Assembly (NCBI GenBank): GCA_012838635.1
Contig: DUOW01000011.1
Span: 4,882 to 68,881, forward strand
Source: Acholeplasma sp.
Lineage (GTDB): Bacteria; Bacillota_I; Bacilli_A; ML615J-28; CAG-698
Reading direction: 5' to 3'
DNA length: 64,000 nt
Made by a program: the position numbers and the translations under genes
The notes under the pieces: generated by a model
Told to the model about the DNA's origin: nothing
What the model saw: only the letters and a program-made list of their open reading frames with translations
Database searches by the model: none
Part shown: positions 2,218 through 63,691 of the stretch, piece by piece
Numbering within the stretch: the stretch's first letter is position 1
How the letters are laid out: every line of letters starts with the position of its first letter

Positions 2218-4932
2218 TTATTTAAATAATGTAACATCATCAACAACAATTGCATATTCAGTGTTGCCATCAGCAGTCGCATTTGGTGTATGATAATAGA
2301 ATCTGTATAATCCTGGATTAAAATTAGATGTGATTTCTACATACTTATCTTTTTCTAATTTTGATAGGAAGTTAGGATTTTCTTCACCAGTTAATGTAAT
2401 ATCAACCCAATTTTCTCCATCTTTAATTTGAATTTTTAAAACTGAGTCAGCTAAGCCCATAATTTTATCATACTTTGATTGGTTCCAAGCTGCAATCTTA
2501 AATTTCACGCCTGTAGCTTCAGTATATGAAGTAAAATCAAATTCAACCCAAGCTTCTTGAGCAGATTTTTTTGTTGCTAAAACTAACATACAACCACTTT
2601 CTTCATGCGGAGCATATGTTGAATTATTTAGTTGTGCTCTTTGTTTTTGAAGCGTCATTGTCTCGCCATCAGCGTTAGTAAATGTAAACGAACTGCTTCC
2701 GTATCCTTCATCCGTTGTAGGAGATGTGCCAAAATCAATTGCTTTTATAACAGTCATTGCGATTGGTGCTTTAGCAACAAGTGTAGCTGTATATGTTTCT
2801 TGTAATTCACCTAAAGTTAATGTAACAGTTAATGCAACTTCAGTATCTGCTTCTGGTGCAGTATAAACACCTTCATTTGAAATAACTTCTGGTTTATCTG
2901 TTTCCCAAGCAAGTGCTACTTCTTTACCTTCAACATCTACTGTTGCAGAGAAAGTTAGATTTGAAACAACTTCTTTGTTATTTGGATAAGCATCTTCTAC
3001 TCTAGCTTTTGCCTCTGCTAGTGCTTGTTCGTCAGTTAATCCTACCCAAACAACTGAATCTGGAACTAATACATATCTCCATTTTTCGCTGTCATGAGGT
3101 CCCATAACTACTACTAGTGCTGATGCAATTTCTCTACCAACTTTACCTTCAAGTTGAGCTAATGCTTCAGCAGTATTATTGTAATAAATATATACTTTAT
3201 TGTCTGTAGTTGTTGTTTCATCGTCTAATGCAGCAATATATGAGTTATTATATGAACCCGCAGTAACATACTTACCAGATACTTTATAAACTTTACCAAT
3301 ATTTGATAAATCTGATGCTTCAATTGCGCAAAGATCTGCAACTGATTTTTCTACAGCTTTAGCAGCATGATCATATCCTGTTCCTTCAGTAACAACAATA
3401 ACTGTAGGTGATGCAAGTTGAGGTAATCCTTTATAAGCATCTTTCTTACCTATTACATCTACAACATCGCCATAGCCAGCAGCAATACCATTTTTATCAT
3501 AAATTAAAATTGCTCCTGTAGCATCTTCTACAACAATACCATCTTTAAGTACACCAATTACTGTTCCTTGAATATAAAGCATATCGTCTTTTGCTGCTGC
3601 ATGTGCTTCAGCAATTGTAGATAATTCATAAACAGGAACTTTAACTGTTAAACTAACTTCTTGACTAACTTCTCTTAAAGTAACTGTAGCAGTTAATACT
3701 ACCGTAGTTTCTTCAGCTGGTTTAGTAAGTTTACCATCAACAGCAATTACTTCTGGATGATCAGAAGCCCAACTAATTGTTAGTGCTTCATCTAAATCTG
3801 AAGTTACTGGTAAAACTAAATCTTTAAGGACTAACATATTTTCAGGGAATTGATTGTTTAAGTTAGTAACTGCTCCAGCAACTTTTTCTTCATCTGTTAA
3901 TTCAGGTGCAGCAACTTCTACTACAGTTCCTGGAATAACTGAAATTCTCCATCCATCTGAGTATGCATATAAAACAGCATCTAATTCTACATACTTATCT
4001 ATTTTAGCATTGAAGTCTTCTATTCCTTGAGGATGTCCACCATAATAAATAGCAAGTTCTTTTCCTGAAAGTTCATCTAATAAGTATGAGTTAGTATAAT
4101 CTCCTTCAGTCTTTTGGATAGCTTTTCCCGTTACTTTTACTAAAGTTCCTGGAAGTTTAATTCCATCGCCCAATGCCTCAATTTCAGCAGCTGTTTTAGC
4201 CACACCTAAATCACCATAATTATAGCCTTCAGCTGGTGCTTCTTCTAATACTGTAATTGTTGCTGAATCGCCACCAATTTGTTGACAATTATTATAAGCT
4301 TTTCTTTCTCCTGAAACTCTAATTCTTGCACCTGGTTTTACTTTATCAGGGTGTTCACTTTTAGCCATATAGACAAAAAATGTTCCTGTATCATCTTTGA
4401 AGTAAGCACAAATAGAATTGCTTTTGTCTGCCCAAGCGTGAATTACAACACCTTCACCTTCAACATCTTGATTTAGTTGAGCATCGAATAATTCTGCTAC
4501 TGTTAAAACGCTTGGAGCTGGAGCAATATAAATTGTGAACTCTCTTATTTTAGAACCTTCTTTACCTTCAATAGTTAAAGTAGCAACTAAAGTAGCTTCA
4601 CCTTGCTCATTGCCTGTAGGGCGTGTAACACGTAACATTGTTTTTCCTTCATTAGTTTTTTCAACTTCTAAATATTCTGCTCCTTTTGAGATAGACCAAG
4701 TTACTTTAACTGTAACGTCGTTTCCATCTGCATCTTTTACAACTACTGTATCTTGTAATTGTTCATCTTGTTTTAAGTTATTAGCATCTCCCAAGAAAAC
4801 AATTCTTCCTTGAGCGTCTTCTAAATAACCCATCGTTGGGTCTTCTTCTGTTGGATTACAAGAACAACCCACAACTACAAATGCAAATAATGCAAATAGT
4901 AGTACCAAACCTAATCTTCTAAGTTTTTTCAA
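2218..4932 (-). CDS. Large surface lipoprotein (904 aa), possibly with two OB-fold-like segments
   Basis: Signal peptide with a lipobox (LFAFVVVGCS). Internally repeated segments (…GEGVVIHAWADKSNSICAYFKDDTGTFFVY… and …GTVIGVLKDGIVVEDATGAILIY…) resemble OB-fold nucleic-acid-binding domains. It is the last gene of the ABC/nuclease operon. Confidence 0.6.
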   Translation of the reverse strand: MKKLRRLGLVLLFALFAFVVVGCSCNPTEEDPTMGYLEDAQGRIVFLGDANNLKQDEQLQDTVVVKDADGNDVTVKVTWSISKGAEYLEVEKTNEGKTMLRVTRPTGNEQGEATLVATLTIEGKEGSKIREFTIYIAPAPSVLTVAELFDAQLNQDVEGEGVVIHAWADKSNSICAYFKDDTGTFFVYMAKSEHPDKVKPGARIRVSGERKAYNNCQQIGGDSATITVLEEAPAEGYNYGDLGVAKTAAEIEALGDGIKLPGTLVKVTGKAIQKTEGDYTNSYLLDELSGKELAIYYGGHPQGIEDFNAKIDKYVELDAVLYAYSDGWRISVIPGTVVEVAAPELTDEEKVAGAVTNLNNQFPENMLVLKDLVLPVTSDLDEALTISWASDHPEVIAVDGKLTKPAEETTVVLTATVTLREVSQEVSLTVKVPVYELSTIAEAHAAAKDDMLYIQGTVIGVLKDGIVVEDATGAILIYDKNGIAAGYGDVVDVIGKKDAYKGLPQLASPTVIVVTEGTGYDHAAKAVEKSVADLCAIEASDLSNIGKVYKVSGKYVTAGSYNNSYIAALDDETTTTDNKVYIYYNNTAEALAQLEGKVGREIASALVVVMGPHDSEKWRYVLVPDSVVWVGLTDEQALAEAKARVEDAYPNNKEVVSNLTFSATVDVEGKEVALAWETDKPEVISNEGVYTAPEADTEVALTVTLTLGELQETYTATLVAKAPIAMTVIKAIDFGTSPTTDEGYGSSSFTFTNADGETMTLQKQRAQLNNSTYAPHEESGCMLVLATKKSAQEAWVEFDFTSYTEATGVKFKIAAWNQSKYDKIMGLADSVLKIQIKDGENWVDITLTGEENPNFLSKLEKDKYVEITSNFNPGLYRFYYHTPNATADGNTEYAIVVDDVTLFK

Positions 4933-4957: not shown

Positions 4958-6436
4958 TTATTCTGAAACTAAAACGAAATCATTAATTCCGTTTGTTTGA
5001 TTTCCTATCATTACTTGATAAGTGTCATGGAATTTTGAAACTCCACCAATACCATTATAAATCTTTCCAACTTGAATGCTGTTGTAGTCTAATTTAGGAT
5101 AAGCTCCGCCATCAATTCTAAAGTTGATTTCTGCATTAGCTTCTGTTTTACAATAAATTGTATAAGCTCCTTCATCATTAGGTGTGCCAACACTTGTAAC
5201 AGTTACATTTCTTACAATAACAACATATCCTTCATAGTCTACTAAAGATGTAAAATCGGCAGGAACTTCTGTATATTCTACTTCAGCTCCATCTTCGTTG
5301 TCTAAAATTCTTACTTGTTTTGGATTAGTCAATTGCATACCATAAATATCATTAAGCACTGCTTGACATTGGAATCTAACAATAGTTCCAACCTTCAAAG
5401 CTCCAAGTCCAGAGCCATAACCACTAAAGATATAGATACCTGCTTTTTTGATTTCATCATCAAAGTCAGTTGCTTCTAAATCTTCTAAATATAGGTTGTC
5501 TCCTACAATTCTCATAATTTGAGCTTCAATTAAAAGATTTGAACCATCATCATATTGATCAAAGTTTTTCCTAATTTCCGCAATCGAAACTTCAATAACT
5601 TCACCAGTGTAATTAAAGCTTGGATCAGGTTCACCAAAAACTCTCCTTCTTGATGTTCCCGCTTTATATGCGGCATCAATAAATGTATCTACATAATTAT
5701 CATTGGCACCAGTTGAACCAGTATAGTTAGAGTACGCATTTTCAACTATTTCAAGATTTAATAATCTAAAGTCTTCATTAGCACTATTACGATACCAAAC
5801 TAAACCTAAATATCTTTTTCCTGTAGCATCAATTTGAGCTGCTTTACCATCAGATGATTCTAAAACAATTTGCTCGGCACCTCTTAAAATCTCCCCTACA
5901 AAACTACTTGCAGCTTTACCCCAAGGATCAATTCTACCCGTAGATTCTGGTGTATTGATATATAAGAATCTTGTTGTGAAAGTAAATCTTTCGCCTTTAT
6001 TACGGAAATGGGCTGTATCGCCATCAACCAACTGGCTTAATTCAACTTCTCCAATACCATCAGCTATAAAACTTTTGCCAGCAAAACTTTTTGTTAGTTT
6101 AAGTTCATCAGTATAACCAGTATCTAAATGCCCATAAATCTCAAAGTTAGCTGCAGCAGTTAATTTACCACTAATAGCTCTAACTGTAACTCTACCAGGA
6201 GCAACTGCCGTAACTAAACCATCCTTAACAGTTGCTACCTTTTCGTTACTTGATTCCCATTTATATTTAGCTTTCTCTGGAACAACAGTTGCTTCTAGTT
6301 GATATGTTTCACCAACCATAAGACTTTCTTTTTCTGTATTTAATTTGATTGTATCTGCTGTTTTACAACCAACTAAAAGAAAGGCTAAAAGTAAGAATAA
6401 TAAACTAAATATTATTCTTCTTGTGCATTTTATCAT
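4958..6436 (-). CDS. Membrane lipoprotein nuclease with SNase (thermonuclease)-like domain
   Basis: Lipobox LLVGCKT. An N-terminal Big_2-like region (YKWESSNEKVATV). The motifs LVDGDTAHF and TRFLYINTPES resemble the staphylococcal-nuclease VxDGDT and GIDxPE motifs. It is co-oriented with the ABC transporter genes, as for mycoplasma MnuA/mhp379-type nucleases. Confidence 0.6.
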   Translation of the reverse strand: MIKCTRRIIFSLLFLLLAFLLVGCKTADTIKLNTEKESLMVGETYQLEATVVPEKAKYKWESSNEKVATVKDGLVTAVAPGRVTVRAISGKLTAAANFEIYGHLDTGYTDELKLTKSFAGKSFIADGIGEVELSQLVDGDTAHFRNKGERFTFTTRFLYINTPESTGRIDPWGKAASSFVGEILRGAEQIVLESSDGKAAQIDATGKRYLGLVWYRNSANEDFRLLNLEIVENAYSNYTGSTGANDNYVDTFIDAAYKAGTSRRRVFGEPDPSFNYTGEVIEVSIAEIRKNFDQYDDGSNLLIEAQIMRIVGDNLYLEDLEATDFDDEIKKAGIYIFSGYGSGLGALKVGTIVRFQCQAVLNDIYGMQLTNPKQVRILDNEDGAEVEYTEVPADFTSLVDYEGYVVIVRNVTVTSVGTPNDEGAYTIYCKTEANAEINFRIDGGAYPKLDYNSIQVGKIYNGIGGVSKFHDTYQVMIGNQTNGINDFVLVSE

Positions 6437-7945: not shown

Positions 7946-9082
7946 TTAACCTTTTGTTCCACCACGAACAACTCCACGCATAATGTATTTCTTTAAAGTA
8001 AAGAAGACAATTAGTAATGGAAGTGTGACAATTAACGATCCAGCCATTTGTTGGTTAAGTACGTTGCCTGGACCGGTTAATTCAATTGTTGATCTAAATG
8101 CATTCGATAAGCCGTTACTTACTAACCACATCTTGTAGTTTTGGAAGTCCGTAACTAAGTTTGGCCAAATATATGCATTCCATGAGCCCATTAAACTTAA
8201 AATCGTAATTGTAATAATTGTTGGCTTTGCAATTGGAATCATAATTTTAAATAAATATTTAAAATCTCCAACTCCATCTACTTTAGCCGCATAATATAAC
8301 TCATCAGATACTTGCTTGAACGTTTGCCTCAAATAGAAAGTATAAAAGACACTTCCAATAAACGGCAAGATCATCGCCAAGTAGTTACCTATTATTTTTA
8401 CAGTATCATCGTTTAATCTTGCTCCTACCCAACCTAACCTTGAAACTGTACCATAGTTAGTAATAATGAATACTTCCCCAGGAACCATCATTGTTGATAA
8501 TAGGATTGTGAATAAAACGTCGCTTCCTTTAAATCTTAATCTAGAAAAAGCAAATGCTGAGAAAACAACAGATATTACTGTAAATACCGTTGTAAAGAAA
8601 CCAACCAAAATTGTATTTCCAAACATATATAAGAATGGTACTCCTCGCTTTAAAGTTCCGTTTGGATTTAACTCTAATTGGAAAATATTCTTATATGCCT
8701 CAAAAGTAATTTTGTTTGGAATTAAAGAGGGCTTTGTTGCCGCAATCTCTTCTGCTGATTTGAATGATGTAATTACCATCCAATAGAACGGAATCAAAAT
8801 AAATAAAGCAATTAAGATTAAAAAGATATATGTAATTACTTTTAATGTTGTTCTTTTGACTCTAAATGCTCTTAATTGATCTGCTGGAACATACGCTTCT
8901 TTTTCTTTTCTTTGGATTTCTTTTGCTCTTGCAAGTTCGGCTGCATTTGCGCCACTTTCTAAAGCTAATTGTTCAGCCTTTTTCTTTTCTTTGTATTTAC
9001 CTACTAGATAAACTACTAAGTAACCAATTCCAAAAAGTGCAGCTAAACCTAAAAGAATTAATAAAATTTCTTTAAAACCCAT
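7946..9082 (-). CDS. ABC transporter permease (MalG/UgpE-like)
   Basis: Multi-TM protein with an N-terminal hydrophilic extension (KKKAEQLALESGANAAELARAKEIQRKEKE) followed by a typical binding-protein-dependent permease core. Confidence 0.7.
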   Translation of the reverse strand: MGFKEILLILLGLAALFGIGYLVVYLVGKYKEKKKAEQLALESGANAAELARAKEIQRKEKEAYVPADQLRAFRVKRTTLKVITYIFLILIALFILIPFYWMVITSFKSAEEIAATKPSLIPNKITFEAYKNIFQLELNPNGTLKRGVPFLYMFGNTILVGFFTTVFTVISVVFSAFAFSRLRFKGSDVLFTILLSTMMVPGEVFIITNYGTVSRLGWVGARLNDDTVKIIGNYLAMILPFIGSVFYTFYLRQTFKQVSDELYYAAKVDGVGDFKYLFKIMIPIAKPTIITITILSLMGSWNAYIWPNLVTDFQNYKMWLVSNGLSNAFRSTIELTGPGNVLNQQMAGSLIVTLPLLIVFFTLKKYIMRGVVRGGTKG

Positions 9083-30943: not shown

Positions 30944-31412
30944 CTTTTTTCTTCCTTCTTGTTCTTCTTTTCTTTTTTTCTTTAATTGTATAGTCTCCAA
31001 TAATAATATTTCCATTTTCTTCTTCAATAATTATAGTATCTTGTTCTAAATAAACAAATCCTGAATTAGGAAAGTTTTCAATACCTAAAATAGAAAAAGG
31101 AAATAGCTTGTTTTTACCATATTTAGTTATATTCAAAATACAAATGGTTTTTGTTTCTAAGATTATCTCATGAATAACTTTTCTTTTAGAATATAACGAT
31201 AGGTTGCCTTTTGGGGAAAAAGTATATAAAGTAATGCCTTGGCATTTAATTTTCTTTAATTTTTCTGGTTGTTCATTTTTTCTATTAAACTTACTAATTA
31301 CTTTTTCAGCCCACTTTTTACAATAAGGTTTATTAGCAACCGCATAATAGATATCTCCTATATAATAATAACCCGGTTTTAAGACTAGATCTTTCTTTTT
31401 CCTAAAACACAT
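30930..31412 (-). CDS. Small cytoplasmic protein with poly-Lys/Arg C-terminal tail (middle gene of the nuclease operon)
   Basis: 160 aa. No signal peptide. C-terminus KEKKKRRTRRKKKDENN. Its start overlaps the stop of the nuclease gene by 11 nt, suggesting translational coupling. Confidence 0.5.
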   Translation of the reverse strand: MCFRKKKDLVLKPGYYYIGDIYYAVANKPYCKKWAEKVISKFNRKNEQPEKLKKIKCQGITLYTFSPKGNLSLYSKRKVIHEIILETKTICILNITKYGKNKLFPFSILGIENFPNSGFVYLEQDTIIIEEENGNIIIGDYTIKEKKKRRTRRKKKDENN

Positions 31413-32616
31413 ATGTATACTCTTCCTTATAGTAGTAGATTGGTTTAACCCTTAATTTTGTTAGTTCATCTATCGTTTTGCCTTCCCAAATTAAGTGAAC
31501 ATATTCTGGTTTATCAATAAATGGATTGCGGTTGTTTTGTTCTTGGCTAATAATATCATTTCTTTGAAGTTCAAAATCATCAACTGGATCTTCGCGATGC
31601 CATTTTAATAATATAGGCAATAATCCCATTTTAGCTCCAGATAATTGATATGTTTCTCCAGTCAATAACTCGGCTGCTGTTTCTACTAAACTTAACTCAT
31701 TATACATTACATCCATATAAAATAAGATTCTTGCTACATCTCCTTTATGCTCATCGCCTGGAAACCAAGAAGTAGAAGTAACGGCTCCGTATGTTGTTGT
31801 TTCAGTTGTTGGATTATCAAAATATGAATTTCCTCTTGAAGAGTTTACACTTTGAACAATAGCTCTTAAATTATGTAAGTCACTAGCTTGATTTCTAGTA
31901 CTATTAGTAATTTTATCAGTCTCTGTTCCTAAACGTGATCGTGGCCAAACGTGTTCTCTTGTCCAACTAGTTCCGTCCCATGTGGCATCGATTTTATCCC
32001 CACTATAGATTGTCCAAACTTTTGTTGGGTCTTCTAAATCAGCATCAGCTCTACCTAAAATCTCTCTAGCATCTCCATAAGTTCTTGGAGTAAAGTTTTC
32101 TCTCATGATACTATTAAGTTCTCTTCTTAAGTCTTCGCCTTCTTTGTTGTTAGCAGAAGCATAATAAGTTCCTTTGGCTTCCTCAATATATATATAAAAA
32201 CCATCATCATTAGTTTCGTCATTAGGCTCTAACTTAAAAACAGTAATTTTATATGTGTTAGATATCTTACCGACTGTTATGGTAACGTCGGTCTTCCCAA
32301 CTTGATGGGCTGTCATCTTTCCCGTTTGATCAATTGATAAAATTTCTGGATTGCTTGAAGTAAAACTTGCTTCATTATACTCAGCTGCCGTTTCGGGAAT
32401 AGTCTTATATGTTATCGTTTGACTAGCGTCAACACTAATATTATATTTATCTATTCTAACTTCTAAATCCCTAACAGTTCGAGGTTCTAAATATAAAAAC
32501 CAAATAGCAAGAAAAATTAAAACTAAAACAACTAAAATTATTCCGCCAATAGATAAAGAAGATATCTTTTTAGCAGCTTTTTTTGCTATTTTTACGTTAT
32601 CTTTCTTTTTAGCCAT
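31402..32616 (-). CDS. Secreted/membrane-anchored nuclease of the Endonuclease I (EndA/Vvn) family with Big_2-like domain
   Basis: N-terminal TM anchor (ISSLSIGGIILVVLVLIFLAIWFLYL) and a Big_2-like segment (ILSIDQTGKMTAHQVGKTDVTITV). Motifs EHVWPRS, DLHNL and NSSRGN fit the Endonuclease_1 catalytic signature. Confidence 0.55.
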   Translation of the reverse strand: MAKKKDNVKIAKKAAKKISSLSIGGIILVVLVLIFLAIWFLYLEPRTVRDLEVRIDKYNISVDASQTITYKTIPETAAEYNEASFTSSNPEILSIDQTGKMTAHQVGKTDVTITVGKISNTYKITVFKLEPNDETNDDGFYIYIEEAKGTYYASANNKEGEDLRRELNSIMRENFTPRTYGDAREILGRADADLEDPTKVWTIYSGDKIDATWDGTSWTREHVWPRSRLGTETDKITNSTRNQASDLHNLRAIVQSVNSSRGNSYFDNPTTETTTYGAVTSTSWFPGDEHKGDVARILFYMDVMYNELSLVETAAELLTGETYQLSGAKMGLLPILLKWHREDPVDDFELQRNDIISQEQNNRNPFIDKPEYVHLIWEGKTIDELTKLRVKPIYYYKEEYTYVF

Positions 32617-32817
32617 GAAACCACCTCGTTATTCATTATATCATTTTTTTTGCTTTTTTCAATCTTTATAATTAACATTTCCACATTGATAAATTGTTTA
32701 TTCTTTATTAAAAAGTTTTCCTTGCTTTTTACACTGTGGAAAAGTAGATAAAAATTATTTAATTTTTATGTTTATTATTCTTTCTTTTTGTGGTATCATA
32801 TATGGGAGGAGTTCAGT
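32617..32817. promoter_or_regulatory. oriC part 1: DnaA-box cluster and dnaA promoter region
   Basis: ATTTCCACA, TTTTACACT and TGTGGAAAA (the reverse complement of TTTTCCACA) lie within 170 bp upstream of dnaA. Gene-strand bias switches here. Confidence 0.55.
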
Positions 32818-34209
32818 ATGAGTAATTTAGATATGGAAAATGCTTTAAACATTTGGCAAAAGACGCTCGAGCATTTAAAAACTGAAATAGATGACATTTC
32901 TTATAATGATTTGTTTTCTAAAACAAAAGAAGTTTTTAAAGTTAAAGATAGTACAATCTGGATTATCGTTGATAGTACTTTAACAAAATTTAGAATTGAT
33001 AAATTTTATAAAAATAGTATTAACGATTTTGCTTTAAATAATTTTGGTTGTCATTTTACTTTCATTGAATGTAAAGAAGCAGAAGAACAAAAAAGTAAAG
33101 TAGATTTAGTAAATACTACACAAACAGATATCGAAAACAGCAAAAAACCAAGATCTTTGCTCCCTGAATATTCTTTCGACAATTTCGTTATTGGAGAAAG
33201 CAATCGTTTTGCTTTTCTAGCAGCAACTAAAGTAGCTAACGATCCTGTACCAGTTTTAAACCCACTATATATCTTTGGTGGTGTTGGTTTAGGAAAAACG
33301 CATCTTATGTTTGCGGTAGGTAACGAAATCTTGCAATTTAAACCAGAAACAAATGTTGTTTACACAACAGCACAACAATATGCTCAAGATTACTTTACAG
33401 CTTCTAGTAGTAAAGATCCTAAAGCTTTTCAAAAGTTTTATGATTATTATCAATCAGCTGATGTCTTGTTAGTTGATGATATTCAGTTCTTAGAACAAAA
33501 AACAAAAACACAAGAAGAGTTTTTTAAATTATTTGAGCTTTTATATACTGAAAAGAAAAAAATGGTTGTTACATCAGATAGACCAGCTAATCAACTTCAA
33601 AACTTTATGGACAGGTTAAAGAGCAGATTAAGCTATGGTTTAGCTGTAGATATTAAAAAACCAGATAAAAACTTAAGATTAGGTATCTTACAAAAGAAAC
33701 TTCCAACTCATATCCCTAATCCAGAAGATGTTCCGATTGAAGCGTTAGAATTAATTGCTGAAATTTACGAAGATCGCAACGTTAGAGAATTAGAAGGTGC
33801 TTTGAGTAGATATATTTGGTATTGTGTGTCGGCTAATCTTCCTTTCACAAAAGAAAATGTTTATCCAATTTTAGAACCGTTAGTTAAAGGTATGGGTAAA
33901 GAAGGAGCTCCGGCCGACGTTAAGGTAAGAGATATAAAAGAATTGGTAGCTAGTTATTATCAAGTTTCGGTTTCTGAATTAGAATCTGAATCAAGAAAAG
34001 CAAAAATTGTTTTCGCAAGACAAATGGCTATTTATTTAATTAGAACTCTTTATGACTTACCATTAAAACAAATAGGTAGTTATTTCGGAAATAGAGATCA
34101 TGCCACAGTATCTTATTCAATCGATAAAATTGAAAAAGATATGAAGCAAAATAAAGGCATAAAACAAGATATTATATATCTAACTCATAAAATTCAAGGT
34201 GAAAAATAA
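32818..34209 (+). CDS. dnaA: Chromosomal replication initiator DnaA
   Basis: AAA+ Walker A GGVGLGKTHL, box VII, and a C-terminal DNA-binding helix (SRKAKIVFARQMAIYL...GNRDHATV). The start was set at the ATG at 32818, which has a GGGAGG RBS. Confidence 0.95.
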   Translation: MSNLDMENALNIWQKTLEHLKTEIDDISYNDLFSKTKEVFKVKDSTIWIIVDSTLTKFRIDKFYKNSINDFALNNFGCHFTFIECKEAEEQKSKVDLVNTTQTDIENSKKPRSLLPEYSFDNFVIGESNRFAFLAATKVANDPVPVLNPLYIFGGVGLGKTHLMFAVGNEILQFKPETNVVYTTAQQYAQDYFTASSSKDPKAFQKFYDYYQSADVLLVDDIQFLEQKTKTQEEFFKLFELLYTEKKKMVVTSDRPANQLQNFMDRLKSRLSYGLAVDIKKPDKNLRLGILQKKLPTHIPNPEDVPIEALELIAEIYEDRNVRELEGALSRYIWYCVSANLPFTKENVYPILEPLVKGMGKEGAPADVKVRDIKELVASYYQVSVSELESESRKAKIVFARQMAIYLIRTLYDLPLKQIGSYFGNRDHATVSYSIDKIEKDMKQNKGIKQDIIYLTHKIQGEK

Positions 34210-34281
34210 AAGTTATTAACATTTCCACATATGCTAATAATAATAAAAAAATAAATATAAATATAAAAGGAGAAATAAATT
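34210..34281. promoter_or_regulatory. oriC part 2: dnaA-dnaN intergenic DnaA box plus AT-rich unwinding element
   Basis: ATTTCCACA followed by AATAATAATAAAAAAATAAATATAAATATAAAA. Confidence 0.5.
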
Positions 34282-35409
34282 ATGAATGTTACAATTAACA
34301 GAGATTTATTGTTAGAGAACTTAACTAACGTAAGTAGAGCTCTATCAACAAAAACACCAATGCCGGTGCTTACTGGAATCAAATTCGAAATCACAAAAAA
34401 CAAAATGTACTTAACAGCTTCAAATAACGAAATATCAATTCAAGCACAACTAAACGAAGGAAACAAACTAAAGCTTGAAGGAGAAGGAAGTTTTGTTGTA
34501 CCAGGCAAAATATTAAGTGATATTATTAGAAAACTAGATGCAAACGAAGTTCAATTCAAAGTTGTAGAAGATAATGTAATTAAAATTTATGCTAATAGAA
34601 GCGACTTTACTTTAAATGCATTAGAAAAGGATAACTTTCCGTTAATCTCATTTGCTGAATCAAACACATTTATTAAATTAGACATTGGAACATTAAAACA
34701 AATTATTAGAAAAACAACATTTGCTACATCTTTATCAGAATCAAGAGCTATTCTTACTGGTGTTTGCTTAAACTTATCTAACAATAAATTAGAAGCTATC
34801 TCTACGGACAGCTTTAGATTAGCAAAGATATATTTAAATGTTAACGAAGAACTACCAGAATTATCTGTAGTAATCCCTTCAAAAAGCTTAGACGAACTAA
34901 ACAAAATTATTATTGACGACAATGAGAACGATATTGAATTACACTTCTCACCAACAAAGATCCTATTTAAGTATAAGAACTTGTTATTCCAATCAAGATT
35001 AATTGATGGCGTTTATCCAAATACATCTAGTTTAATTCCAACTGAATTCTTAACAAGTATCAAGTTTAATAAAACAGAACTTATTAAAACTATTGATTTA
35101 ATGTCGCTATTTACTAACATTGAATCATCAAACATTATTCAATTACAACTAAACCCAGACAAAACAGTTGAAATCAAATCAACAACAAGTGAAATTGGCG
35201 AAGGTAAAGAAGAACTAATTCCATTAGAGTGTTCTAATCCTGTTTCATTTAAGATAGCTTTTAGCGCTAAATACTTCTTAGAAGCTGTTAGATCGTTTGA
35301 TTCTTCTGAAATAGTTGTTCATTTTACTGGCGAAATCAAACCATTTATCGTTACTGGTGAATATGATGTTAACTTAACTCAATTAATTCTACCAGTAAGA
35401 GTATCTTAA
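34282..35409 (+). CDS. dnaN: DNA polymerase III beta sliding clamp
   Basis: 375 aa, three-domain clamp. Begins MNVTINRDLL..., typical of DnaN. Synteny with dnaA. Confidence 0.9.
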   Translation: MNVTINRDLLLENLTNVSRALSTKTPMPVLTGIKFEITKNKMYLTASNNEISIQAQLNEGNKLKLEGEGSFVVPGKILSDIIRKLDANEVQFKVVEDNVIKIYANRSDFTLNALEKDNFPLISFAESNTFIKLDIGTLKQIIRKTTFATSLSESRAILTGVCLNLSNNKLEAISTDSFRLAKIYLNVNEELPELSVVIPSKSLDELNKIIIDDNENDIELHFSPTKILFKYKNLLFQSRLIDGVYPNTSSLIPTEFLTSIKFNKTELIKTIDLMSLFTNIESSNIIQLQLNPDKTVEIKSTTSEIGEGKEELIPLECSNPVSFKIAFSAKYFLEAVRSFDSSEIVVHFTGEIKPFIVTGEYDVNLTQLILPVRVS

Positions 35410-35424
35410 TTAACATACAATAAA

Positions 35425-35452
35425 AAAAGAGGTGTAATAACCTCTTTTATTT
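35425..35452. terminator. Bidirectional terminator between dnaN and parA-like gene
   Basis: Hairpin AAGAGGT-GTAATAA-CCTCTT flanked by an A-run and a T-run. Confidence 0.55.
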
Positions 35453-36331
35453 TTTCTTTTTTAAGTTTAAAACAACTTTTTCTTGCGGCTGTTCTTGAGC
35501 AGCTGCTTTTTTACTTAATTTCTCTTCATGTTCGTCTACACTTTTAAAGATCCCTAACAATTCTTTTCTTACTTTTAAAGTTTCGGTCAAATCATAACGA
35601 GTTTCAAATACTTCATTTTTGTCAAAAGGAGTCTTACCTTGAGTTTGAATGTTTTGAATTGTTGATTTCTCTGAAAAATAAGGCAATATTAAAGCGTTTA
35701 ATCCCATTGTTCTTGAAAATTCTTTGGCTTGTTTATCCAATGTTTGTAAAGAATCTTTAGGAGCTCTTCTATTTGCAATAAATTTATTAGGTAAAATGTA
35801 TTGAATCTTACTAATAGGAATGTCTTGGTCCACAAAAAACTGGATAGTATTAATAAACCCATCAATCCCCATACTATCTAAACTAATAATTAAGATAATT
35901 CTATCACTATAATCCAACAAAACTTCTGTAGCTCTACAGCTAGAAGGTGGGAAATCAAGCAAAACATAGTCGAAATTCTCGTTATAGACATCAATAATGT
36001 TAAATAAGATCTTTTCTGTAGGTCTTTTTGTAATTAATTCTGTAGATAAAGCATCTGTATTTAAAGTTTTTATTAAATATAAGTTTTCTCTTACTTCATG
36101 TAATACTTCATCAAACGTCCTTTGTCCTACCATTAGGTACTCTAAATAGTCATCATTTCTTGCTGTAACAAGATCTTGGCGTCCAAAAAGAGTAAAAATA
36201 CTATTTTGATCATCAATACTGATGACTAAAACAGTCTTTTTCTTTACTTCTGTTAAATAATGAGCTAAATAACCAATAAACGTTGTTTTACCAACGCCAC
36301 CTTTCTTACAATATGTCGAAATAATGGCCAT
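35447..36331 (-). CDS. parA: ParA/Soj-type partition ATPase (deviant Walker A)
   Basis: KGGVGKTT deviant Walker A at residues 9 to 16. 294 aa. Encoded immediately after a small RHH gene and next to iteron arrays. No parB is present in the window. Confidence 0.8.
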   Translation of the reverse strand: MAIISTYCKKGGVGKTTFIGYLAHYLTEVKKKTVLVISIDDQNSIFTLFGRQDLVTARNDDYLEYLMVGQRTFDEVLHEVRENLYLIKTLNTDALSTELITKRPTEKILFNIIDVYNENFDYVLLDFPPSSCRATEVLLDYSDRIILIISLDSMGIDGFINTIQFFVDQDIPISKIQYILPNKFIANRRAPKDSLQTLDKQAKEFSRTMGLNALILPYFSEKSTIQNIQTQGKTPFDKNEVFETRYDLTETLKVRKELLGIFKSVDEHEEKLSKKAAAQEQPQEKVVLNLKKKK

Positions 36332-36334
36332 ATT

Positions 36335-36679
36335 CTATAATTTAACTCCCATTAATCGTAAATGACGTATAACAGCCTCTTCTACAAACTCAGAAAAAGT
36401 AACTCCTTGCTTCATTGCAGCTATTTTTGCCTCAGATCTAACAATGTGAGCCATAGTTGCAGTGTATTTTACCTTTTTATTCCCTCCATATACGTCATAA
36501 ATCTCATCTTTTTTCGATTTAGTAGGGGTTACTGTCCTAGAAACAGGTTCTTTTTGATAAACTACAGGTTCTTCAACAACTGGTTCTGATAGAGTCTCTT
36601 CCTTAATAATTTCTGCTACATTTACAGTTTTATTTAGGCCCGATAAAGGACTTTGGCCTCTTTTTTTAATTTTTCCCAT
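36335..36679 (-). CDS. Small ribbon-helix-helix DNA-binding protein (ParG/omega-like centromere-binding candidate)
   Basis: 114 aa. A disordered basic N-terminus. The C-terminal KVKYTATMAHIVRSEAKIAAMKQGVTFSEFVEEAVIRHL fits a beta-strand, helix, helix RHH fold. Separated from parA by a 3-nt gap. Confidence 0.6.
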   Translation of the reverse strand: MGKIKKRGQSPLSGLNKTVNVAEIIKEETLSEPVVEEPVVYQKEPVSRTVTPTKSKKDEIYDVYGGNKKVKYTATMAHIVRSEAKIAAMKQGVTFSEFVEEAVIRHLRLMGVKL

Positions 36680-36720
36680 CTTTTTTCACTCCTTTTTCTT
36701 ATAAAAATCACAATTTTAGT

Positions 36721-36840
36721 CAAAAACCATAAAAACATTTATACATTTTTACACAAAACCTTATAACCATTTATATGTTTTTACATTTATACACAAAACC
36801 ACATTTACATTTATACACTTATACATAAAAACATACTTTT
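36721..36840. repeat. Promoter-proximal iteron array: 4 to 5 direct copies of CATTTATACA(C/T) with two ACACAAAACC half-sites
   Basis: Copies at 36736, 36768 (variant), 36784, 36808 and 36818 (extended to TATACATAAAAACATAC). They sit 40 to 160 bp upstream of the RHH-parA operon start. Confidence 0.7.
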
Positions 36841-37835
36841 TTAAGGTCATTTTTTAGGCGATTTTAAGCTTTTAAAACTCGTTTTTTCCTGAATTTTAAA
36901 AATATTGCTTCCTAAAAAAGGGAAATATTTTTTAGCGCTCAAAAAAACATTTTGAATTTAAATTAAGCTAGATTTTTGACCCCCAGTAAAGTATTTATTA
37001 AGGCCGATTCTTAAAAACGCTTAAAAACGAAATTTGAAAGGTTGCAAAAAACTGTTTTTTGCCATATACAGGGGTTTTAAGGCCTTTTAAAAAGACAAAT
37101 ATACATAAAACCATACAGCTGTATATATGGTTTTATGGGTATACATAAAACCATATTAAGAAATGTTGGTTAAAAACAAATTTTTTGTTTTTTTTGGTCT
37201 TTTATTGAGACTATTATACACAATAAAAACATAAAAAGCAATACATAAAGCCATAAAAATGCAAAAAAAAGCACTTTTTATAGCTTTAAAAACGAGTATT
37301 TTCCGGATCTGACGTTTAATACAACAAAAACAACCAAATAAGAGTTGAAATAAGGCTAAAATCAGAAGAAAAACAATATAAATAAAGCTAAAAAGTTAGA
37401 AAATACGCCAGTTTAAGCGTTAGAAAAACCATAAAACTGAAAAACAAACATGATTTTGGCCTTAATAATAAAGAAAACATAATATTTTCAGCGTTTTAAG
37501 GTCCATTTATACATAAAACCATACACAAAAGAGCATTAAATTATGCTTTTGGAAGTAAAAAAACAGGTTTATATGTAAAATGGTTAATAAAAGGGTAAAA
37601 TTATATATTTAATGACCTTAAAATAAGAAATATACATAAAACCATACTCAGAAAAGCTAAAATGTTATGCTTTTTAAAGACGTAAAATAAGAATTTAACA
37701 TAATACACACAATTAATGGACGATAATTTACTTTTTTCAAGAATAAAACATCTTTATATCCAAAATCATACCCAACGAAAGATCCCAAACACCAATTAAC
37801 AACAACAAAAACGAAGTTTATACATAAAACCATAC
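36821..37835. repeat. Dispersed 17-mer family TATACATAAAACCATAC (5 exact + 2 degenerate copies) in a 1.5-kb non-coding island
   Basis: Exact copies at 37100..37116, 37140..37155, 37508..37524, 37631..37647 and 37819..37835. Degenerate copies at 36821..36836 and 37241..37255. An inverted copy lies at 37126..37140. No ORF of 60 aa or longer spans the region. Confidence 0.8.
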
Positions 37836-38237
37836 AGCTTCTTTTAAATAAAAGTAGGAAAACTAAGCTTTAATACAAGATTTGTTTCACTTATTGGGTT
37901 CTATATTCTATATTATTCCTTTTAATGGTTAAATTATCTATTAATTATTCATAAAAGCAGTTATAAACCATCTTTTTGTGTTTTATATTTCAACTTAAAC
38001 CATTTTTAAATAAAAAAGGCAAATAAAACAAGATATTGTTAAAAAACGCAACTAAAACGAAAATAAACGAGTTTTTTGGCTCAATAAATATAATTGGAAA
38101 GATTTTAATAAAAGTCTTTAAAAATAAGCGAAAATGTGGTATAATATCTATGAATTATTCAGGAATTAAAAATGGTTCAAAAGTTTATTTAATAGACCGT
38201 TTTATCCGTTTATTTATAAAAGATAATGGAGAAAGAG

Positions 38238-61684: not shown

Positions 61685-63691
61685 ATGAAAAAGAAAATAG
61701 CGATTATATTTTTATCTATCTTTGTTTTGTTTTTTACAGCCGGCTGTATTGCTAAAGACGGCTCAACAGATATATTTAGATTCGATAGTCACTCTGTGAG
61801 TATGGAAGTTGGACAAACAAAAATTCTATCAATTACGGGACAGTTCAATATTGAAAGTGAAATTGAATATATGATTACTGAAGAAAGCGAAGGCATTATT
61901 GAGTTTGAGAAAATAGCTAATGATAAAGTTAAGATTACGGCTTTATCGGTAGGTGTTGGTAATATCAAAGCCCATCTTGTGGAAAGAGATATCTATGCAC
62001 CAGCTATTATTGAAGTTTCAAATCCTAAAACTTCAGGAATTCGTATTAGTGTTCCCGAAGGCTTTGCAAACGAAATGGAAATTGGCGAAGAATTACAATT
62101 AGGATATTCTTTAACTTCTAATACTAATGAAACAACTAAAGTAACTTGGGAAGTAGGAGATAATGAAAAAGCTACGATTACCGCTGATGGAAAATTTATT
62201 CCTCAATTTGGCGGAAACCATTTTATTTATGCTAGAACTGTAGATGGTGGCTATGCTGTTTTAAAAGTTTTTGTTTATTACCACAATCCAACAGGAGTAT
62301 CTATAGAAGTTGTAGAAAACAATTCTGCAGCTGTTACTGAAACAAATAATAGAATTGCTTATTTAAGAGAAGTTATCAAATTAGGTAGTACAGTATTACC
62401 TGAAACTGCAGAAAATAAAGTTGAGTGGAGATTACTTCACCGTACAGATGATAGTATAGTTATTGAAGATCCTACAAGTGTTGGGTTAGTTATTAATCAA
62501 AAAGGTGAAATTTATTGTACTTCACTAGCAGCGCAAAGTAAATTCCGTATTCAAGCTGTAGCAATGTCAGGAGATGTAGAAATTAAATCTAATATCATTA
62601 CTTTAGACTATACATATGCTCCTGTTGAGAGTGTTCAAATAACTACTAAAGATGTTAGTGGTAGAACTGTTGCTGTACAAGATAGTGTAACTTTAATTGC
62701 GGGTCAATCAATTCAATTCAATGCTTTAGTTGCCCCAACAAACGCAGCAGGAACAGTATCTTGGAGTGTAAATGTTATTGAACCAGTTTTTACTCCAGCA
62801 CAACCATATGTTCTTGACCCAATTACTCGTAGAACAATTACCGCAAACACTTTAGCTTCTGTTACACAAGAAGGTTTATTAACAACAACATATCATGGAA
62901 TTGTTGAGTTAAAGTTATCTTCTCTTGCGGATAGTAGTATTTCACATACAATTACTGTTAATATTCTTCCAAAAGAAAAACCAGTAAAAATTGATTTATT
63001 AATGGATCTTGATGATAGATTATTGTCATATAAATTCTATAGCGACGCAAATGTCTCAACAGCTATTGATAGTGCTGATAACAAAAAGAAATTTATTATT
63101 GGAACAGTTGATATTGTAGCGCAAATTTATCCTGAAGAAACATACTTAGATTTGAAACTAGAAATTATAGAAAAAGATATTGCTTTTATAATTAAAGATG
63201 GAACAACATCAACTACAAAAGGAGTTACAACATTCAAGTTGGGTATTTTAAAAGAAGGTATTTTAAACTTTAAGATATCTTCTCAATATTCAGCTTTAAA
63301 TGAATATCTTGCTCCTATTGAAAAAGCTTTAAATATTAAAAGCGAAGATTTTGAAATTGATAGTTCAGCTGGATTAAACTCTGAAGTGTTTGATGGAGTA
63401 ACTTATGAATATTATGAAGCAATCAGCTTTAGTAATATTATTGATAAAGCTAAAGATAACAAAGAGTTTGGTATTCTAGAAGATAATATGACAGCAGAAT
63501 ATTGGAGTTTAGAAGCTTTGGATGGCTCAAATATTGAAAATGCCAAGTTATTGGTATATAAGACAGACATTGGACTTTTATCAGACTTCTTGATTTTAGG
63601 AGAAGGTAAATTCAAAATAACACTTCAACCAAAGAACTACACTAAACCATTATACACAGTTGTAGTTAATGTTGTTGATAAAGCAAAATAG
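61685..63691 (+). CDS. Surface lipoprotein with Big_2-like repeats
   Basis: Lipobox FFTAGCIAK. Repeated Ig-like segments. 668 aa. A terminator hairpin, GAGACAGATTAAATGTCTC, lies downstream. Confidence 0.65.
   Translation: MKKKIAIIFLSIFVLFFTAGCIAKDGSTDIFRFDSHSVSMEVGQTKILSITGQFNIESEIEYMITEESEGIIEFEKIANDKVKITALSVGVGNIKAHLVERDIYAPAIIEVSNPKTSGIRISVPEGFANEMEIGEELQLGYSLTSNTNETTKVTWEVGDNEKATITADGKFIPQFGGNHFIYARTVDGGYAVLKVFVYYHNPTGVSIEVVENNSAAVTETNNRIAYLREVIKLGSTVLPETAENKVEWRLLHRTDDSIVIEDPTSVGLVINQKGEIYCTSLAAQSKFRIQAVAMSGDVEIKSNIITLDYTYAPVESVQITTKDVSGRTVAVQDSVTLIAGQSIQFNALVAPTNAAGTVSWSVNVIEPVFTPAQPYVLDPITRRTITANTLASVTQEGLLTTTYHGIVELKLSSLADSSISHTITVNILPKEKPVKIDLLMDLDDRLLSYKFYSDANVSTAIDSADNKKKFIIGTVDIVAQIYPEETYLDLKLEIIEKDIAFIIKDGTTSTTKGVTTFKLGILKEGILNFKISSQYSALNEYLAPIEKALNIKSEDFEIDSSAGLNSEVFDGVTYEYYEAISFSNIIDKAKDNKEFGILEDNMTAEYWSLEALDGSNIENAKLLVYKTDIGLLSDFLILGEGKFKITLQPKNYTKPLYTVVVNVVDKAK

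Follow-up and report, generated by a model that had tools for sequence, protein, structure and literature searches.

A candidate type-Ib-like centromere-operator for a chromosomal RHH-ParA operon beside the replication origin of an Acholeplasma sp.

Introduction

What is the role of a dense array of short repeats that lies directly upstream of a small operon for a ribbon-helix-helix (RHH) protein and a ParA-type ATPase, right beside the chromosomal replication origin of an Acholeplasma sp.? The array is part of a stretch of 64,000 nucleotides of contig DUOW01000011.1, which was analysed as a whole and is called the window in the following. An earlier note on this DNA had placed a parC/parH-type centromere-operator upstream of the RHH gene. 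Here, we describe a phased, conserved and locus-specific array at the promoter of the RHH-parA operon beside oriC, and our best reading, drawn by analogy with known systems, is a centromere-operator resembling those of type Ib partition loci (ParG/parH, omega/parS), which would be chromosomal and next to oriC, not plasmid-borne.

In reviews, chromosomal centromere-binding proteins are without exception described as helix-turn-helix (HTH) ParBs (PMC5002424), and some Mollicutes are listed in reviews as carrying no par genes (PMC7022226, PMC4368675). In the literature searched, we found no earlier account of such a chromosomal system of RHH protein and ParA for Acholeplasma, Mollicutes or Tenericutes, which is no proof of its absence.

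Results

The window covers the chromosomal origin region, has a low G+C content (27-34%) and uses the standard genetic code. Downstream of dnaA (32788-34209) and dnaN (34282-35409), both on the plus strand, the ParA gene and the RHH gene are found on the minus strand, and a non-coding spacer of 1.5 kb (36680-38225; 1.55 kb), with a G+C content of 27% in this region, separates the RHH gene from recF, gyrB and gyrA on the plus strand. The proximal iteron array (Table 1) lies in this spacer, its edge being 45 bp upstream of the RHH start codon. Read on the gene strand from 36835 to 36724, its first seven units are TATGTTTT, TATGTATA, AGTGTATA, AATGTAAA, TGTGGTTT, TGTGTATA and again AATGTAAA, followed by AACATATA, AATGGTTA, TAAGGTTT, TGTGTAAA, AATGTATA, AATGTTTT and TATGGTTT. 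Autocorrelation of the array revealed a signal at a lag of 8 (z = 5.0) and another at a lag of 32 (z = 6.0, 66% identity), the latter representing a super-repeat of 32 bp with about 3.5 copies, whose spacing was also returned by a repeat finder. Since 32 bp correspond to about three helical turns, like units would share one face of the helix.

The earlier note had counted four to five direct copies of a 10 to 11-mer within this region. Three exact copies of CATTTATACAY (36736, 36784 and 36808) and two with one mismatch (36744 and 36816) are indeed present, but the true unit is 8 bp long, and the 11-mer runs across one unit into the beginning of the following one. The 11-mer has one more exact match at 37504. 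The count of the 11-mer in the window (6) is close to the 5.35 expected by shuffling, so the signal lies in its clustering, with all six between 36736 and 37514. ACACAAAACC straddles a unit junction and occurs twice in the spacer and nowhere else. Other words behaved likewise: all seven copies of ATACATAA are in the spacer and on the plus strand, and CATTTATACA and ATACATAAAACC were found four and five times in the spacer, respectively, versus none elsewhere. For the 16-mer TATACATAAAACCATA, 11 matches at up to three mismatches were counted versus 2.65 expected, ten of them in the spacer and five exact. The motif is thus no common genome-wide AT-rich word, the finding by which the earlier note would have been overturned, at least within the window, where the sharper words are exclusive to the spacer.

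The element is, however, larger than the earlier note had assumed. Its array does stand directly upstream of the RHH gene (36724-36835), but beyond an iteron-free gap the motif returns in the form of two-unit 16-mers and reaches 37834, giving a composite element of about 1.1 kb, of which the array is only the proximal part.

Loci were scanned with one genome per species, resulting in 80 loci from Acholeplasmatales, "Bacilli" and RF39-like metagenome-assembled genomes with a ParA identity of 44-83%; two congeneric genomes, L001 and L002, were aligned to the window. As far as the contigs reach, the order dnaA, dnaN, ParA, RHH, spacer (0.9-3.4 kb), recF and gyrB is the same in all 80 loci, dnaN being found in 79 of them and recF and gyrB in 57. 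The divergence of ParA from that of the window follows the divergence of DnaN and GyrB (rho ~0.64), which fits vertical inheritance. The core TTATGTAT was counted 211 times in the spacers of clade A versus 3.8 expected from the flanks, and 42 times versus 0.8 in those of the RF39-like clade B; of 58 loci, 57 carry this core ahead of the RHH gene, and its enrichment in the spacers is about 50-fold. Distances between ATGTA words on the same strand, taken over all related spacers, revealed the same register as in the window, with 96 pairs at 8 bp, 39 at 16, 34 at 24, 41 at 32 and 33 at 40, a minor class at 4 plus 8n, and 0-2 pairs at most other distances.

The two-unit sites are most frequent directly ahead of the RHH gene (0-200 bp), where they favour the strand of the gene by 54 to 7, are nearly absent at 200-400 bp and are back at 400-1500 bp. 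Their density per 100 bp amounts to 0.2-0.6 in the spacer versus 0.0043 in the flanks, the peak being about 100 times the flank value, and relatives display dozens of units across 1-3 kb. In clade B, the core TATGGTT(G/A)TATGTAT either overlaps the -35 box of a clear TTGnnn-17-TATAAT promoter or directly precedes it, this RHH promoter beginning 54-60 nt before the start codon. On the basis of these sequences, the operator position of the parC/parH type proposed by the earlier note appears well founded, combining an RHH partner, a ParA, an 8-bp register, specificity for the spacer and a core shared by nearly all loci.

The RHH protein starts with the motif KIKKRGQSPL, followed by a disordered linker and a C-terminal strand-helix-helix region. 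Although no Pfam model matched the 114-residue protein of the window alone, a profile of its 56-member family matched the RHH protein 2KEL in the PDB (E = 1.5e-8) without retrieving omega from there. Pfam matches among the 56 members comprised RHH_10 (28), 56B_RHH (21), RHH_3 (18) and, weakly, Omega_Repress (16) and ParG (3). The AlphaFold (AF2) model, built from a 54-sequence alignment, has a low predicted local distance difference test score (pLDDT) for residues 1-70 and values above 90 for residues 71-112, which form an extended KYTATM stretch and helices at 78-91 and 95-110. A Foldseek search with this model returned nearly exclusively RHH proteins (CopG with 0.8 Å over 34 residues, Arc and DNA-binding domains of antitoxins), with E-values that are not significant, and is used here as qualitative support only. 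R7 and P11 of the N-terminal KKRxNP motif are invariant, as are K71, T73, T75 and M76 of the strand, so that conserved DNA-facing strand residues parallel a conserved DNA core. By profile and model, the protein is a member of the RHH family with a predicted disordered N-terminal tail, and it was previously unannotated: the family comprises at least 414 sequence clusters, and among the 120 listed none has a precomputed Pfam domain, the few named ones being hypothetical proteins. No member of the family was found in phages or viral contigs, nor was a plasmid relative found for the protein of the window. A typical family member yielded a single marginal plasmid match (E = 7e-3, 31.6% identity), which is an unannotated small open reading frame (ORF; 785-1018) right after parA on Dietzia kunjamensis plasmid pDK2035-59 (L081); as judged from this sequence, it hints at a distant link to the partners of plasmid type Ib systems.

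Regarding the annotation of the RHH gene, it was seen that translation of the repeat arrays yields long spurious ORFs in which Y, V, C, F, I and M abound, such as MYVLVYICICFYMCLHIYVYVYIFM. They are present in L002, L009, L018, L023, L027, L036, L037, L039 and others, and at 37657-37833 in the window. Such ORFs lengthen the RHH gene at its start or imitate that start, and could lead gene-calling programs astray. True RHH starts have a strong AGGAGG ribosome-binding site and lie just before the PFKKR motif.

The ParA gene begins 3 nt after the RHH stop codon, so both genes are regarded as an operon. Its product carries the deviant Walker A motif at residues 9-17 and matches Pfam AAA_31 from residue 2 onwards (E = 9.8e-23) and also CbiA; no HTH or other N-terminal DNA-binding domain was found in the Pfam scan. 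The best NCBIfam matches, PrgP and ParA_partition, are weak, and among solved structures pNOB8 ParA, Helicobacter pylori Soj and delta are remotely related (E = 1e-10 to 1e-7).

The gap between the proximal and distal repeats corresponds to the low in repeat density that the whole family displays 200-400 bp ahead of the RHH gene. Two copies of CGTTTTTAAG lie in the gap, and a single-sequence nhmmer search matched it only in the two congeners. A structured RNA, either in the gap or in a transcript from the candidate promoter P2, was considered and rejected: a comparison of the window from 30 to 42 kb with Rfam found nothing at E up to 1, 11 relatives had no hit at the gathering score, and the predicted fold of the gap revealed no stability signal against shuffled sequences (z = -0.35 and +0.13). 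Candidate promoter P2, about 530 nt upstream of the RHH gene, is laid out like the RHH promoter of clade B, and L001 and L002 share its TTGTGTATAAT without a change; a long leader or a separate transcript could originate from P2. Downstream of P2, the palindromic iteron triplet scores as a terminator-like hairpin (37137-37104).

Another motif, GRCCTTAAWA, occurs seven times in the window versus 1.08 expected. Six copies are in the spacer (36839, 36996, 37075, 37458, 37494 and 37614), several of them 3-15 bp from iteron sites. As a second family-wide motif it was rejected, being present in only 10 of 58 loci and thus lineage-specific.

Table 1. Coordinates of the features at the RHH-parA locus and the adjacent origin module (positions within the window)
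Feature	Position	Strand	Remarks
Putative oriC unwinding module, dnaA-dnaN spacer	34210-34281	+	Degenerate tandem DnaA boxes, TAA-type trinucleotide repeats, AT-rich stretch; ~2.4 kb from the array
ParA-type ATPase gene	35447-36331	-	294 aa; Walker A KKGGVGKTT
RHH gene, putative centromere-binding protein and repressor	36335-36679	-	114 aa
-35-like hexamer TTGACT	36718-36723	-	Directly adjoins the last array unit; sequence reading
Proximal iteron array	36724-36835	-	Fourteen contiguous in-phase 8-bp units, WRTGKWWW on the RHH gene strand; conserved in L001 and L002
Iteron-free gap	36836-37098		~260 bp, between proximal and distal repeats; well conserved in the two congeneric genomes
Distal 16-mer triplet, + / - / +	37100-37155		37100-37115, 37126-37141 (-), 37140-37155; the inverted pair is palindromic; also conserved in L001 and L002
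Candidate promoter P2 toward the RHH gene	37213-37241	-	-35 TTGCTT 37241-37236, 17-nt spacer, -10 TATAAT 37218-37213; sequence reading
Two-unit site AATACATAAAGCCATA (2 mismatches)	37240-37255	+	Adjoins the P2 -35 box; conserved in L001 and L002
Exact 16-mer TATACATAAAACCATA	37508-37523	+	Motif search with mismatches
Exact 16-mer TATACATAAAACCATA	37631-37646	+	Motif search with mismatches
Exact 16-mer TATACATAAAACCATA, outermost	37819-37834	+	Motif search with mismatches

The spacer between dnaA and dnaN presents itself differently from the RHH-recF spacer. In every relative it contains two tandem DnaA boxes, TAA-type trinucleotide repeats and an AT-rich stretch, e.g., GTTATCCAC and TTATCCACA followed by CTAATAATAA at the matching place, and the module of the window displays the degenerate boxes GTTATTAAC and ATTTCCACA, then TAATAATAATAA trinucleotide repeats and an AT-rich run. 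A perfect TTATCCACA does not occur anywhere in the 64 kb. Across the loci, the density per kb of boxes of the relaxed type TTATNCACA is 2.5 ahead of dnaA and 5.5 between dnaA and dnaN, compared with 0.15, the background level, in the RHH-recF spacers. The cumulative GC skew of the window has its minimum at 36-38 kb.

As to the remaining neighbourhood, rnpA, yidC, jag and mnmE are located upstream of dnaA, and the gene just upstream of dnaA (31402-32616, minus strand) encodes an Endonuclease I domain together with Big_2 domains, presumably a secreted or surface nuclease; further Big_2 proteins are encoded at 4958-6436 and 61685-63691. In L033, a gene for 70 amino acids (4068-4280), YaaA-like (S4-type) as judged by eye, lies between the spacer and recF, and it is also present in other relatives. 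The window and its congeners carry no such gene; what they keep in this place (37850-38225 of the window) is a stretch of about 190 bp ahead of the recF promoter, highly conserved with L001 and L002. The recF promoter itself was read as TTTAAA, 17 nt and TGgTATAAT (38117-38145).

Discussion

We consider it probable, from the comparison with characterised systems, that a composite element serves as operator and centromere for the RHH protein of the gene immediately downstream, the array being the part of this element nearest to the promoter. That some protein binds the array is hardly in doubt, and the adjacent RHH protein is very likely to do so. Judged by the same analogies, autoregulation of the operon by this protein can well be expected, and a centromere role of the array is favoured with some reserve.

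The way in which such a complex would work can be outlined as follows. Each 8-bp unit in turn would take up one RHH dimer, whose paired beta-strands (K71, T73, T75) would enter the major groove, and binding would be cooperative. The fourteen units would be coated in the form of a spiral, as is the case for ParG on OF/parH, omega on heptad arrays and MetJ on 8-bp metboxes. The earlier note had envisaged a dimer of dimers, but an array of fourteen units would by analogy rather take up a multi-dimer coat. This coat would overlap the promoter region of the operon and repress it. Together with the satellites of two to three units that are spread over the following 1 kb, the coated array would build a partition complex, whose disordered N-terminal tails (KKRxNP, R7) might contact nucleoid-bound ParA-ATP and stimulate its ATPase, and newly replicated origin regions would thereby separate. 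Situated about 2.4 kb from the oriC unwinding site, the complex would therefore mark the origin as parS does elsewhere. In omega heptad arrays, at least four contiguous repeats are needed for ATPase activation (PMC9499535); by this analogy, the array of fourteen units would be the active centromere, and the satellites would be auxiliary, serving the control of P2, bridging or enlargement of the complex.

By its sequence features, the locus is a type Ib partition locus in kind, with a small ParA, an RHH partner with a predicted tail and a putative tandem-repeat centromere/operator at the promoter. The ParA has a deviant Walker A motif and is devoid of an N-terminal DNA-binding domain, its partner has an RHH domain, and tandem short repeats lie upstream of the operon, in clade B at the -35 box of its promoter. 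Residues 1-70, with their low pLDDT and the conserved KKRxNP motif, may correspond to the flexible basic N-terminal tail by which type Ib partners activate the ATPase. The plasmid location that is usual for type Ib was not found; wherever the flanks suffice, the locus lies between dnaN and recF.

A close model is ParF-ParG of TP228, also a system with an RHH centromere-binding protein and a flexible N-terminal tail (PMC3130281). Its arrays OF and parH, with 8 plus 12 boxes, an 8-bp period and one dimer per box, both act as centromeres (PMC3130281). As here, degenerate short boxes set apart by AT-rich spacers recur every 8 bp, the array next to the promoter has the double role of operator and centromere that we propose for ours, and more boxes in direct and inverted orientation lie upstream (PMC3130281). 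Unlike TP228, our locus is chromosomal, next to oriC and ordered RHH then ParA, its core is TGT/TGG where ParG boxes have ACTC, and its element, with about 260 bp devoid of iterons and with dispersed two-unit satellites, stretches over about 1.1 kb. The RHH protein has next to no resemblance in sequence to ParG, the corresponding Pfam matches being restricted to the three weak ones. With delta-omega of pSM19035, the locus shares the combination of a Firmicute ParA and an RHH protein, contiguous short repeats of mixed orientation upstream of promoters with several sites per replicon, and the proposed double function of repressor and centromere-binding protein that omega has (PMC9499535, PMC4498918). 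The weak Omega_Repress matches point in the same direction. It differs in its period (8 bp instead of the 7 bp of omega), its single operon and its chromosomal location, and in the failure of the profile to find omega in the PDB.

On chromosomes, the closest analogue is the archaeal SegAB system of Sulfolobus, which also consists of a ParA-type ATPase and a small DNA-binding partner with an RHH-type fold, with sites beside the operon (PMC8682754, PMC12139799). SegAB is archaeal, though, without detected sequence relationship to our proteins, and has another site architecture, a tandem 8-bp array not being reported for it. The bacterial Soj/Spo0J type of ParABS likewise lies close to the origin, which it presumably helps to segregate, and its ParA is also devoid of a DNA-binding domain at the N terminus, but this type employs an HTH/CTPase ParB and a 16-bp palindrome instead of an RHH partner and an iteron array. 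An assignment to chromosomal ParABS was rejected, as the neighbour is an RHH gene and neither a ParBc domain nor parS was found in the window: no ParBc domain was detected in the 56 non-embedded ORFs of at least 100 amino acids, the ORF 8466-8786 (plus strand) inside 7946-9082 being unscanned, and parS (TGTTNCACGTGAAACA) had no match at up to two mismatches in 64 kb and four at three mismatches versus 2.0 expected. MetJ provides a further precedent, its RHH dimers occupying tandem 8-bp metboxes with base contacts from a Lys-x-Thr strand, as is proposed here; it is a metabolic repressor with a co-repressor and no ParA partner. An iteron-type plasmid origin, with iterons of 17-22 bp and a rep gene, was rejected as well, the unit being 8 bp long and the locus containing no rep gene.

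Other explanations of the repeats have to be weighed against a composite operator and centromere. The RHH protein may only repress its own operon, and perhaps the distal promoter, while ParA has another job, such as the regulation of DnaA known from Soj or the positioning of a non-DNA cargo, and no centromere exists. The repeats are indeed at promoters, the locus adjoins dnaA, dnaN and oriC, Soj does regulate DnaA (PMC7022226), and our ParA is just remotely related to characterised partition ATPases. We nevertheless regard a mere operator as unlikely, as an operator would need far fewer and less widely spread sites than the fourteen contiguous units with their satellites in the window and the dozens of units that relatives have across 1-3 kb, the conserved basic N-terminal tail is typical of ParA-activating partners, and operator and centromere of characterised type Ib systems are the same kind of array (PMC3130281). 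It is less probable still, and quite improbable on the whole, that a different protein, e.g., a nucleoid-associated or origin-organising factor, binds the repeats and the adjacency of the RHH gene is incidental. The indirect nature of the link between RHH protein and repeats and the clustering of the unrelated GRCCTTAAWA in the same spacer would allow for it, but the repeats adjoin the RHH-parA operon in every locus examined, they are densest, and biased in orientation, right in front of the RHH gene, and a tandem 8-bp geometry is the signature of RHH arrays (PMC3130281).

For atypical DnaA boxes or another part of oriC, one could cite TTATACACA at 36787 and 37214, which fits the relaxed consensus, the position of the skew minimum and the missing perfect box in the window. 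However, DnaA boxes cluster around dnaA and not in the RHH-recF spacer, so the repeats are not taken as oriC: the canonical module of two boxes, trinucleotides and AT-rich stretch lies between dnaA and dnaN, typical units of relatives (TATGTATT, TATGTAAA) do not fit a DnaA box, and the skew minimum is displaced by the two minus-strand genes, which leaves this explanation with a very small probability. An equally small one is given to the remnant of an integrated plasmid or phage partition cassette without chromosomal role. The type of system is plasmid-like, and its best, though weak, plasmid relative follows a plasmid parA, but the identical position and order over 80 genomes, the divergence of ParA in step with core genes, the lack of viral or phage relatives, the near-complete lack of plasmid ones and the absence of an integrase, rep gene or other sign of a mobile element nearby speak against such an origin. 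Least credible, and close to negligible, is a non-functional AT-rich simple sequence produced by replication slippage; the region is poor in G+C and its words resemble TA-rich microsatellites, yet the core is conserved in distant genomes at a level far above equally AT-rich flanks, the 8-bp register is strict, and five exact 16-mers are separated by unrelated sequence.

Several observations weigh against the composite operator and centromere that we favour. For the proximal promoter, no convincing -10 box emerged from a consensus scan or from inspection by hand, the spacing from TTGACT to TATAAG being only 14 nt. The link between the RHH protein and the repeats is drawn from adjacency, co-conservation and analogy, and covariation added nothing to it: comparing the strand variants KYTATM, KYTSTM, KFTSVM and KYTAVM with the DNA core revealed no clear difference by eye, and the comparison is uninformative because strand residues and core are both conserved. 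Judging from omega, the distal sites, with two units each, may lack the length needed for activating ParA (PMC9499535). The gene order, with RHH before ParA, differs from that of parFG, and the absence of ParB applies to this 64-kb window.

Compared with known type Ib systems, the locus is new in being chromosomal, fixed beside oriC, vertically conserved over an order-level group, unannotated and equipped with a composite element of about 1.1 kb with a conserved gap. Its position by dnaA and dnaN might couple the RHH-ParA system to the control of replication initiation. We tentatively propose, at somewhat less than even confidence, that in Acholeplasmatales and RF39-like wall-less Firmicutes ParB-parS has been replaced by RHH, ParA and a kilobase-scale iteron "regional centromere" beside oriC. 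If true, this would be the first bacterial chromosome shown to have an RHH centromere-binding protein.

Conclusions

Our findings suggest that a large, mostly uncultured group of wall-less Firmicutes carries a conserved RHH-based origin system, contrary to what reviews state. The three-part module of array, RHH protein and ParA could stabilise oriC plasmids in Mollicutes. If confirmed, the system would offer a testable answer to how origins are segregated in bacteria with small genomes, and would be a bacterial counterpart of archaeal SegAB.

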